Positions 58,582-61,455 of a DNA stretch of 64,000 nucleotides are shown here, in pieces. This stretch comes from Ruminiclostridium hungatei (lineage in GTDB: Bacteria; Bacillota; Clostridia; Acetivibrionales; DSM-1351), in assembly GCF_002051585.1 (NCBI RefSeq), contig NZ_MZGX01000013.1, positions 70,614 through 134,613 on the forward strand, given 5' to 3'. The notes under the pieces were generated by a model. That model did no database searches. It was not told the origin of the DNA and saw only the letters and a program-made list of their open reading frames with translations. Within the stretch, counting starts at the first letter, position 1; each line of letters opens with the position of its first letter. Made by a program: the position numbers and the translations under genes.

Positions 58582-58615
58582 GACAAAAAGTTTGCAACAT
58601 TAAGCTTGCAAACTT
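58582..58615. promoter_or_regulatory. operator-like inverted repeat AAGTTTGCAA-n8-TTGCAAACTT, with a 17-nt motif GACAAAAAGTTTGCAAC shared with 61013..61029
   Basis: Perfect 10-bp inverted repeat at 58588..58597 / 58606..58615. An identical 17-mer at 61013..61029 lies upstream of the WYL gene pair. No U-run, so it is not a terminator. Confidence 0.4.
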
Positions 58616-58658
58616 CGTCTACTGACAAAATATAAATTCATAACAGACAATTCCCAGG

Positions 58659-59660
58659 TTACAGACTAATTGCTTTTTTTACTCTTTTAATAACCTCGTT
58701 TGCAATTCTTTGAGGTGATATAACTTTCACATAAGGTCCAAGAGATAAAATATTTTGAATGAGATTTTCCTCTTCAAAGAGATAATAATTTAACCTTATC
58801 TCATATTTATTGTTACCAAGTTCTCTTGCTGTTCTTTCCATTCCTGAAAAACACATGAAACACCTTTCCATGGCAGTATTTTTATCAGTTACCTCCAATA
58901 TTACAGGCTGTTCCGAATATTTCTGCTCAAAAAGCAGCTTTTTTGCTGTCTCCCTGTCTATTCCAATATCTTCATCCACTATAATGACACTGGAAAGACT
59001 AAAAATATTCGCCATTATGGGCCTTTTTTCATCAATCGAATACAGCGAAACCCTGAATCTTGAATCTCTCATGGAATACTCAAGATTCACCGGAAGAGCC
59101 AGCTTGTCTGCATGAATATTTCCATTTCTATCTACATTGGTATATCTTATGGGCTTTTCGTTAATAAGTGCATTCAGTATCAATCTGAAATTTGCTTCAT
59201 AATTCTCCCATTGGCTGATTTCAGGTAACTTAACGGAATTTGTCATTTCAAAATATTCTTGCTTTATTGGTGAATCGAAGTCTTCCAGCTCTTTATTCAA
59301 TTTATCAAGTGTATTTTTGCTAAGAAGCAATTTTACTTCCTGCTGCTGTAAAAGAGCTTTAAGCCAGGCCTTCTCCAAATTCGTGAACCTTACCGGAAGG
59401 GGTGATTCCCCATTACTATCAATGCAAGGATAGAATAAGCCTTCCTTTTCACTTAACAGGTTCAGCTTTTCATCTTTATTGCCCTTATTCAAAATCATAT
59501 CTGCAAAGGATTGCTGATTTTTACCTATCAATTTCTGTTCAAACTCTCCATCATGCACAATCTTGACTAAATCGGTTTTTGTCCTGCCATCAGCGCATTC
59601 ATTGATAATCCTGAAAACCAACTGGAAATACCGGTTCTTTACTTCATTAAACAATTCCAT
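58659..59660 (-). CDS. HTH-WYL-WCX transcriptional regulator (PafBC/BrxR-like), paralog 2 of a tandem pair
   Basis: N-terminus [19 protein letters not shown] (paralogous to the upstream gene's [16 protein letters not shown]). C-terminal WCX-like ...[25 protein letters not shown]. Confidence 0.65.
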
Positions 59661-60936
59661 AGTTTGAAAGCGTCTCCTTCCAGTCATTTAGCAGTTTTTC
59701 TGCAAGTTGCTTACTTTCAAGAACTTTAACATATCCGGCATAACTTCTGATCCAGGGTATTATTTCATAGCTGTCATTTACCTGCAGGGTGAAGTAATAA
59801 CGTCCTGCTTCTATTTTTTCCAGCTTTCCAAGGGTAGCCTCATATTTTATTTTTTCCAGGATATAGTTTTCAGCAGGTTCATTAATAATAATCTCAAGCT
59901 TGACCGTTTCAGGCTTATTAGCTGGGGTAAGTGATGCACTGGACCAACTATAAAGCATATTGGACCGGTACTCTTCGTCAAAATCTTCCCTATTAAATAA
60001 TTCCTCCAACAATTCCACAGCTTCCAACCTGTCAAGTCTTGAAACAATGCATCTGTTATGAGTATTGAAAGAAATCAAATAGTAACGTCCATGTCGTACA
60101 TCATATCTGATTTTGTACGGGCTGAGTATTTTTCTATTATTACTGTTACTTGTGCTTTTCGGCGAATGATATGTTATCCGTATTTTTCTTCTCAGGTGAA
60201 TAGCCTTGATAATCTCCCAAAGCACCTGTTCTTCAATTACAGGATGAAAGTGTACATGCCTGTAATTATAAATATTTTTATCCTCATACTTCATTTTGCG
60301 CTCATACTGCAGATAATCCTTTAGGGTCTGCTGGCAGAAATAGCCTGCAGTTACAGGGAATACAATATTTTTATAGAGACCGACTGCTGTCATCAATTCT
60401 TTCAGTTCGTCAGTATCAAGTGTCTTGAGTAAGTCATCGGATATGCTGTAATACTTGGTTCTCTTTACAGCTTCACAAGAGAGCACTCCAATACTTTCAC
60501 ACATTTCTGCCAGCTTTCTTTGGATGGTTTTACTGCTGATTTTATCAAAGGATACTAAGCCCCCGGCATTAAGTCCATCTTCTATATACTTCAAGGAACA
60601 TGGTTTGTTTTCTGATCTGATAAATAAAAGAAGAAGAAAATATGTCAATAAATCAGTGCGGGTAAAACTTTTGGTCATATATGTACTTACCAGAAAGTTA
60701 TCGGGGTGTCTCAAAAAATCATAGGACAGGCTCATCAGCTTATATCTGCCGTCCTTGTCAAACCTTATATATTCGTTTTCAACGTATTGCTGGATACGGC
60801 GGATTTCATAACTGACTTTTCTGGAGCTGACATTTCTTTTATTTTCAAGGCCATCCCTGGAATAATAACCGTAAAGAAAGCAATCTCTGAGTATGTCCCT
60901 GATGATGTTGTAATGTTTGATAAATTCGTTAAACAT
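59647..60936 (-). CDS. HTH-WYL-WCX transcriptional regulator, paralog 1 of a tandem pair
   Basis: WYL motif [37 protein letters not shown]-terminal WCX ...[19 protein letters not shown] at 60936 preferred over the TTG ORF-track start at 61017. Confidence 0.7.
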
Positions 60937-61455
60937 ATTTGCCCCTTCCGATTTATTTACAATAATTCTATCATAATCTTGATATTTTGATGTGTGCAAA
61001 ATAAAAGTTAGAGACAAAAAGTTTGCAACCTTTCCTGTTTTTAACTTTATTAAAATTTTATATGTTATAATCTAGAAAATAAATCATTGAAGGTAAAGGT
61101 ATAAACACTTATAGAGAAAAAGAAAGAGCTTTTTTTCTTGATATTCGTAGTGGTAAATATAGTTATCGAGAGATTTTTGAAATAGTCGATGAGTATGAGC
61201 AGCACTTTAAAGCTGCTGCAAATACTTCTCTTCCGGAGGAACCAGATTATAAAGGCATTGAAGACTTAATGATAGAGATTTACAGTAAAGTATTTCTAAT
61301 GGGATAACTTTTGCTAAAAGCGGCGTAGTACAGGATTTCATTATAGTGTTAACGATGCTATGGGTAACAATCTAATATACCATTGGGAAACATTAGGAAT
61401 CATCAGTGGTGTACAAGCTGTTGCAGCAGCAAAAATAAAATATGGAGTTTAATTT

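Follow-up and report, generated by a model that had tools for sequence, protein, structure and literature searches.

Two adjacent, overlapping genes of Ruminiclostridium hungatei, here called A and B, lie ahead of the genes for an SPFH/Band-7 protein and the RNA ligase RtcB. They were analyzed within a 64,000-nucleotide stretch of contig NZ_MZGX01000013.1 (positions 70,614 to 134,613), referred to below as the window, whose numbering is used for all coordinates except those prefixed by the designation of a related locus (L). The products of the two genes probably form a heterodimer resembling PafBC, which would activate a regulon of RNA-repair genes from promoters of the type used by DriD and PafBC. 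The observations that carry this reading are the domain content of the proteins, the linkage of their genes to each other and to RNA-repair genes, a set of natural gene fusions, and the conservation and promoter geometry of a 21-bp DNA motif.

The elements of the locus follow one another on the minus strand in the order motif copy 1, A, B, hairpin with motif copy 2, TATACT box, non-coding stretch, SPFH, and rtcB. Both regulator genes are real, and the start of B overlaps the end of A by 14 nt. The individual features are as follows.

61008..61028 (-): motif copy 1, TTGCAAACTTTTTGTCTCTAA, containing the exact 17-mer, 71 nt upstream of the ATG of A
60984..60989 (-): weak box CAAAAT, 23 nt from motif copy 1
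60965..60973 (-): extended -10 box TGaTAGAAT, read from the sequence, 42 nt downstream of motif copy 1
59647..60936 (-): gene for protein A (CLHUN_22190), 429 aa, with Pfam WYL and WCX domains
58659..59660 (-): gene for protein B (CLHUN_22180), 333 aa, the divergent partner with helix-turn-helix (HTH), degenerate WYL, and WCX parts
58587..58616 (-): hairpin (10-11 bp stem, 8-nt loop) from a terminator scan, followed by UUUGUCUGUU; its 3' arm is the motif
58577..58597 (-): motif copy 2, TTGCAAACTTTTTGTCTGTTA, containing the exact 17-mer; predicted A/B site, at about -51 to -31, of the promoter for the non-coding RNA, SPFH, and rtcB
58577..58616 (-): hairpin and motif copy 2 together
58553..58558 (-): -10 box TATACT, read from the sequence, exactly 23 nt after the GTC of the motif; predicted start near 58546
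58078..58546 (-): structured RNA of about 460 nt, tRNA-like or Y-RNA-like, from a sub-threshold Rfam YrlA match and a 16-sequence RNAalifold alignment
56894..58015 (-): SPFH/Band-7 (slipin-like) protein, 373 aa (Pfam Band_7, E 7e-31)
55624..56808 (-): RtcB RNA ligase, 394 aa (Pfam RtcB, E 3e-63)

A motif at a fixed distance from the -10 box

The first-pass annotation of the window had reported a 17-nt motif shared between the regions upstream and downstream of the pair. This 17-mer, GACAAAAAGTTTGCAAC, is exact at both places (61013..61029 and 58582..58598) and occurs nowhere else in the 64 kb, where no further site with up to three mismatches was found; the two copies share 18 nt exactly and 20 of 21 nt overall. 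Across 53 related loci, collected by a scan of one genome per species, the motif extends to 21 bp (TTGCAAnnTTTTTGTCTGTaA), with the gene-strand consensus TTGCAA-[A/G][C/G]-TTTTTGTCTGTaA. Two conserved blocks are set about one helical turn apart, and the site is asymmetric and oriented with the genes; G2C3A4A5, T8-T12, and G13T14C15 are its invariant positions. The 764 kb of related loci contain 65 sites on the gene strand against six on the opposite strand and a mean of 1.2 for permuted motifs, and at least one site is present in 48 of the 53 loci. The motif is thus commoner than chance would give.

The motif is tied to a promoter element by its spacing. A TATAMT box lies exactly 23 nt after the GTC of the motif in 56 of 61 sites, while the -35 position reads TGTaAa, which matches at three of six positions and provides no -35 box; the TGTaA positions are conserved even though they fall outside the pattern used for the motif search. 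With the 23-nt spacing to the -10 box fixed, the site falls between about -51 and -31 in a promoter of the sigma-A type lacking a -35 box. The position of motif copy 2 is conserved in 23 related loci, and conservation of the RNA sequence begins 7-9 nt after the -10 box. As judged from these alignments, the functional site is an asymmetric 21-mer held at a fixed 23 nt from the -10 box, and not a palindrome.

The same geometry bears on whether the motif is a site for A/B at all or an element of an alternative sigma factor, such as the sigma-54 -24/-12 element of the RtcR-controlled rtcBA operon of Escherichia coli. The spacing of TTGCAA-N5-TTGTC equals that of TGGCAC-N5-TTGCW, a few Clostridium sites read TGGCAA, and the enterobacterial rtc operon is sigma-54 dependent (PMC7790460). 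Despite the right spacing, the hallmark GG is TG in 53 of the 61 sites and the GC of the -12 element is GT in all 61; a sigma-54 element would also leave the conserved sigma-A type TATAMT box, with its exact 23-nt spacing, unexplained. Neither in the A/B pair nor in the genes that follow the motif was an AAA+ enhancer-binding protein found. The sigma-54 reading is very improbable and was rejected on the failed hallmarks and the unexplained -10 box.

Taken as an A/B site, the motif heads operons that have RNA repair in common. These comprise the conserved RNA of about 460 nt with SPFH and RtcB, as in the window; a YrlA-like RNA with Rsr (TROVE and vWA_Ro60 domains), RtcB, A, and B; a T4-type RNA ligase (Rnl) with a kinase/HD end-healing protein (Pnkp); and a HEAT-repeat protein with PrfH. 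Further motif-headed genes encode a MoxR protein with a DUF2201 protein, a DUF6847 protein, and the A-B operon itself. The proposal that a cis-element connects the pair with the rtcB operon is thus borne out in the related loci, where the conserved motif is linked to both A/B and rtcB-type operons. The reverse test, a metagenome scan with the motif and -10 box alone, returned 34 loci, 21 of which have A/B or the same RNA-repair genes directly adjacent.

Five to seven of the metagenome motif loci have in common an uncharacterized 691-aa protein (MNRIYLRRK..., no Pfam family), and most of the remaining loci are too short for a judgment. The 691-aa protein lies directly behind the motif promoter in L071:5262-7337, L081:1415-3490(-), L062, and L080 and is a candidate new member of the regulon. 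At L061 (the same sequence as L067), L079, and L086, the match to motif and -10 box is followed by no recognizable gene for up to 3 kb or only by unrelated small open reading frames (ORFs), and these sites may be chance matches or other non-coding targets. A scan of viral contigs gave three motif matches, all GC-rich, without a -10 box, and with no RNA-repair genes nearby; they are taken as chance, and the motif is therefore not a phage feature.

Two remotely related regulators and their fusions

Protein A matches Pfam WYL (PF13280) with 29.4 bits (threshold 21.8, E 8e-7) and Pfam WCX (PF25583) with 35.9 bits (threshold 23.9, E 1e-8), and in its family WCX is matched by 17 of 17 members and WYL by 14 of 17. 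It consists of a conserved N-terminal segment, a predicted winged helix, a WYL domain with an SRLDR arginine loop, and WCX. The equivalent of this loop in the WYL domains of PafBC, located between beta-strands 4 and 5, was identified as functionally essential (PMC6789036). An AlphaFold2 (AF2) model of A matches DriD (E 4e-12), its best fold match in Foldseek, and PafBC (E 3e-9); the alignments run over nearly the full length, and winged-helix-like elements appear at residues 94-166, where the predicted local distance difference test score (pLDDT) is low.

Protein B is a more difficult case. The protein of the window has no match to Pfam WYL and scores 22.3 bits against WCX, just under the threshold of 23.9; in its family WCX is matched by 19 of 20 members (best E 1e-6) and WYL by one of 20 (E 0.057). 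BLASTP found zero similarity between A and B, but profile comparison with hhalign aligns residues 158-334 of B with residues 239-428 of A, the WYL and WCX region (E 1.1e-4, probability 57%). At the position aligned with the SRLDR loop of A, B reads ANIFSLS, with both arginines lost. In the AF2 model of B the C-terminal half reaches a pLDDT of 80-90, and the WYL-equivalent region is predicted as a five-strand beta module; winged-helix-like elements lie at residues 8-79, at low pLDDT, and the Foldseek alignments to DriD and PafBC are again nearly full length. Its fold matches in the PDB are PafBC (9fnd, E 2e-10), DriD (E 1e-9), and then CapW and BrxR, with significant scores only to HTH-WYL-WCX regulators. 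PDB sequence searches with the A and B profiles gave nothing significant (a PafBC chain at E 0.58), and NCBIfam holds no model for either protein.

The family WCX matches, the hhalign alignment to A, and the predicted fold together place B in the HTH-WYL-WCX superfamily, and on this profile and model evidence it is a very divergent HTH-WYL-WCX protein with a degenerate WYL domain. In terms of class A of Muller et al. 2019 (HTH-WYL-WCX), the WYL feature is present in A and degenerate in B, and the WCX feature is present. The first-pass annotation had described the two as paralogous WYL-WCX regulators with aligning N-termini. A passes both Pfam models, and B joins it through profile and fold while failing Pfam WYL and falling just short on WCX, so that the term paralogous holds only remotely, since BLASTP is null and profile and fold comparison alone connect the two; the alignment of the N-termini is not borne out, as hhalign on N-terminal sub-alignments gave a probability of <1%. 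The likeness to a tandem PafB/PafC pair, also proposed there, is supported by the HTH-WYL-WCX character of the two proteins.

In the 53 related genomes the two genes are adjacent without exception. In every related locus with enough sequence, B directly follows A with overlapping start and stop (10-14 nt), and more distant A/B pairs keep the two-gene layout; complete genomes with the pair include CP124862 and CP133264. A natural A-B fusion, P0292 (L091:5996-8368, 790 aa), matches the A profile over residues 7-422 (E 1.7e-39) and the B profile over residues 458-788 (E 5e-41); it comes from a sequencing-run assembly and has no RNA-repair genes nearby. About 33 of the 53 loci have RtcB in their flanking sequence, where it takes three arrangements, and in eight loci B is fused in frame to RtcB, giving products of 755-764 aa with Pfam WCX and RtcB domains (L029:9268-11538, L031:9247-11538, L047:9268-11538, and five further loci). 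The hosts of these fusions are seven Clostridium or unclassified Bacillota and Desulfosporosinus acididurans.

An exhaustive profile search gave 1184 B-like clusters at 50% identity, P0292 among them, and the family of two-gene A/B-type regulators is much wider than RNA repair. Distant overlapping A/B-like pairs stand beside other cargo in L092, L094, and L095, namely an AAA/HEPN_Swt1 protein with a 1658-aa ATPase, or proteins of 603 and 1110 aa of unknown type. Because the distant pairs adjoin such cargo, RNA repair is a speciality of the clostridial branch and not of the whole family.

Since B has lost its arginine loop, is recognized by Pfam WYL in a single family member, and is fused to RtcB in the eight loci, it might be asked whether A alone, as a homodimer, is the DNA-binding regulator, with B serving as an RtcB-associated adaptor or anti-activator that modulates it. 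B nevertheless keeps an invariant N-terminal segment and a predicted winged-helix region, and the alignments of its model with chains of DriD and PafBC span the entire protein. The asymmetric site, with its two different conserved blocks, fits two different HTH domains, and the natural A-B fusion exists. We regard a regulator built of A alone as improbable and retain the heterodimer.

The hairpin, the structured RNA, and the neighboring genes

At motif copy 2 the sequence forms a perfect 10-bp inverted repeat, AAGTTTGCAA-n8-TTGCAAACTT (58588..58597 and 58606..58615), which the first-pass annotation had taken for an operator. The corresponding hairpin (RNAfold, -16.9 kcal/mol) starts 43 nt after the stop codon of B, and the U-rich tract listed above comes next. 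Were the repeat a palindromic operator for two regulator units and not a terminator, its perfection in the window and the conservation of its upstream arm at 23 sites would be in keeping. However, all 23 sites preceded by a co-directional gene have the arm (hairpins of -12.5 to -27.6 kcal/mol), whereas all 19 operon-head sites lack it, and loci of the Clostridium group have instead a separate, conventional terminator immediately upstream of the motif. The upstream arm also varies in a telling manner: it reads TTTGTGAC in L012, and in L001 it faces a G in the motif, so that G.U pairing is kept in the RNA while the changes fall at positions invariant in the motif and would break them. Because the hairpin occurs only behind a co-directional gene and its arm tolerates G.U-type changes at motif-invariant positions, and with a U-rich tract trailing it, the repeat is most likely, as judged from these comparisons, the intrinsic terminator of A-B merged with the next promoter. 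The perfect repeat itself is real; its use as an operator is unlikely.

Beyond the -10 box, the RNA from about 58546 to about 58078 is conserved over its full length in 16-18 loci. It contains two T-arm-like hairpins, a D-arm-like element, and a long-range closing stem, and RNAalifold assigns 57 pairs, 16 of them with compensatory changes, to the 16-sequence alignment. The Rfam YrlA model (RF02553) matches 58365..58464, the tRNA-like module only, with 37.3 bits (E 1.7e-5), under the gathering score of 69, and the neighboring gene is SPFH, not Rsr. With nothing beyond this sub-threshold match, the RNA is not catalogued as an Rfam family of its own. ARAGORN found zero tRNA genes in the window, and the tRNA-like elements belong to the larger RNA. 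In other loci the motif and Rsr are separated by YrlA-like leaders (50.9 bits in L008, 33.6 bits in L034). From its position, the RNA of about 460 nt is predicted to be the first product of the regulated promoter at motif copy 2. The motif does face a slipin-rtcB operon, as had been noticed, but the RNA that comes before SPFH and rtcB had been overlooked. An RNA-repair module of SPFH/Band-7 with a cognate tRNA-like RNA was reportedly described by Burroughs and Aravind in 2016, and the RNA of the window presumably corresponds to the tRNA-like RNA of such modules.

Three neighbors of the locus deserve mention. At 61083..61307 on the plus strand lies the 3' remnant of a gene for the RNA-repair nucleotidyltransferase RlaP (PF10127), without a start codon and reduced to the last ~66 aa; Pfam on the 66-aa fragment gave no confirmation, whereas the full-length homologue in L001 did. 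Relatives have a pair of full-length RlaP genes that diverge from A (L001:6034-7047 and 7061-7831), with a second RtcB and PrfH behind them in L022 and L064, and R. hungatei seems to have undergone a deletion of about 1.7 kb. Convergent with rtcB is a T-box leader with a terminator (55102..55469, plus strand; 54 bits against a threshold of 93, E 5e-10), trailed only by an ORF of 44-50 aa that resembles the start of an arginyl-tRNA synthetase, without confirmation from Pfam, and that may be a truncated gene. Adjoining the locus at 48796..54978 on the minus strand is a 2060-aa hybrid protein resembling a non-ribosomal peptide synthetase, with carrier, condensation, adenylation, and short-chain dehydrogenase segments recognized on visual inspection of its translation; it seems to have no connection with the regulators.

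A proposed activator of RNA repair and its relatives

In the proposed mechanism, A and B would be made in equal amounts from their overlapping genes and would form a heteromeric HTH-WYL-WCX activator. The complex would bind the asymmetric 21-bp site at about -51 to -31 and recruit or adapt the housekeeping RNA polymerase at promoters with a good sigma-A -10 box but without a -35 box. Its clear target in the window would be the promoter at 58553..58597, transcribing the RNA of about 460 nt, SPFH, and RtcB, and since the same site heads RNA-repair operons in other Clostridia, A/B would serve as master regulator of a whole regulon for RNA repair. Induction would come from nucleic-acid fragments of damaged RNA, bound by the intact WYL domain of A, while B, having lost its arginine loop, may link the regulator to RtcB, and through their fusion the ligase could clear the signal and so provide feedback. 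DNA binding, activation, heterodimer formation, and the ligand are the parts of this scheme that we infer.

Activation must be weighed against repression, in which A/B would sit on the motif in the manner of BrxR or CapW and be released by a ligand. The fold matches of B do include BrxR and CapW. Their operators are palindromic, unlike the A/B site. The site is, moreover, clear of the -10 box and the start, its spacing is fixed at 23 nt, and promoters without a -35 box should be weak unaided. In published comparative studies, WYL transcription factors are often regarded as negative regulators (PMC9503650), but the architecture seen here is that of the activators DriD and PafBC (PMC13004042, PMC8635444), and a repressor seems unlikely.

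Several points weigh against a PafBC-like activator of RNA repair. Binding of A/B to the motif is predicted on the basis of co-localization, and no motif is found near A/B in four full loci (L011, L016, L017, and L018) and in the fragmentary L051, while about one-third of the metagenome motif matches lie beside unknown genes or on contigs too short to judge. The N-terminal regions of the A and B models are of low confidence, and it is on these that the HTH domains rest, because no Pfam HTH model matches either family. The known ligands of PafBC and DriD are single-stranded DNA, not RNA; for A, RNA is a plausible candidate ligand.

The same caution applies to autoregulation, which the first-pass annotation had put forward. 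The position of motif copy 1 is conserved in the close relatives L001, L002, L003, L045, and L046, but the box 23 nt after it is weak (CAAAAT) in the R. hungatei clade, and many loci, motif-less ones included, have a conserved TATGGTAGAAT or TATGGTACAAT ahead of A; read from the sequence, the TGaTAGAAT of the window is the probable constitutive promoter of A-B. The Clostridium group and several others do have a site upstream of A at the canonical 23-nt spacing to TATAMT. Since the upstream copy in R. hungatei has no good -10 box at that spacing, autoregulation is uncertain there.

Of the characterized systems, PafBC, the mycobacterial and actinobacterial activator of the DNA-damage response, is the closest in organization. 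In both cases two adjacent HTH-WYL-WCX genes act as one unit (for A/B, dimerization is predicted), single-chain fusions occur (Arthrobacter PafBC, 6sj9, and P0292), the promoters are of the housekeeping-sigma type with a -10 box and no -35 box (PMC8635444), and B finds its best fold matches in PafBC chains. The A/B halves differ in being extremely diverged, to the point of a null BLASTP result, with a degenerate WYL in B and an extra N-terminal segment of about 90 aa in A. Their 21-mer site ends 23 nt ahead of the -10 box, whereas PafBC uses hybrid promoters with a tGTCgg -26 element 10 nt before it (PMC8635444); the genes behind the A/B motif belong to RNA repair and the PafBC regulon to DNA repair; and the hosts are Clostridia, with no proteasome locus and, in some species, with B fused to RtcB. 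DriD, a WYL activator of Caulobacter, shares with A/B a site that covers the place of the missing -35 box and keeps a constant spacing to the -10 box, but it is a homodimer (PMC13004042) that senses single-stranded DNA in a DNA-damage pathway, in contrast to the two different genes, asymmetric site, and RNA-repair cargo of A/B.

In cargo, A/B is closer to the RtcR-controlled rsr-yrlBA-rtcBA operon of Salmonella and E. coli, in which a dedicated nucleic-acid-sensing activator likewise stands beside a Y-RNA-like RNA, an RNA-binding scaffold, and RtcB (PMC7790460, PMC4201824), sensing by A/B being presumed. RtcR is a CARF-AAA+ enhancer-binding protein that works with sigma-54, whereas A/B is a WYL pair on a sigma-A type promoter; the scaffold in the window is SPFH instead of Rsr, and no RtcA is seen in the operon. 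The general proposal that RNA ends may be sensed by WYL transcription factors, and pathways of RNA repair regulated by them, comes from later papers of Burroughs and Aravind's group (PMC9503650). A search of the full-text literature, which did not cover their 2016 paper, found no paper linking a WYL regulator to RtcB or Rsr operons and no description of the A/B pair, its site, regulon, or fusions. The circuit may accordingly be called apparently undescribed, as it had been at first, although the general idea of WYL proteins and RNA ends is already in print. The SPFH/Band-7 module of 2016 is said to be like the window in having SPFH and RtcB preceded by a tRNA-like RNA, and the paper reportedly describes the module and not a regulator pair, motif, or fusions.

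To our knowledge, RtcR, with sigma-54 in Proteobacteria, is the only characterized bacterial regulator of RNA repair, and how Firmicutes switch on their RtcB, Rsr/Y RNA, Rnl/Pnkp, and PrfH modules is not understood. We also know of no earlier case of a WYL regulator fused to an enzyme under its control. These fusions allow a more speculative extension, which we offer tentatively: a sensor of RNA damage whose switch includes the repair enzyme itself. RtcB would be coupled through B to the DNA-binding complex, the WYL domain of A would read broken RNA ends or fragments of the co-transcribed tRNA-like RNA acting as a sentinel, and the tethered ligase would clear them, making the response self-resetting and the system a Gram-positive counterpart of RtcR assembled from entirely different parts. 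Acetivibrio thermocellus is genetically tractable. As it has a B homologue (P0191), and other Acetivibrio species have the full pair (L008 and L041), experiments look feasible.

The locus offers a concrete regulator, a precise 21-bp site with fixed geometry, and a predicted regulon that unites otherwise unconnected RNA-repair modules. If the proposed activation is true, the mode of action of PafBC and DriD would extend to Clostridia and to RNA rather than DNA damage. The locus points to a Gram-positive RNA-damage response that has not yet been characterized.

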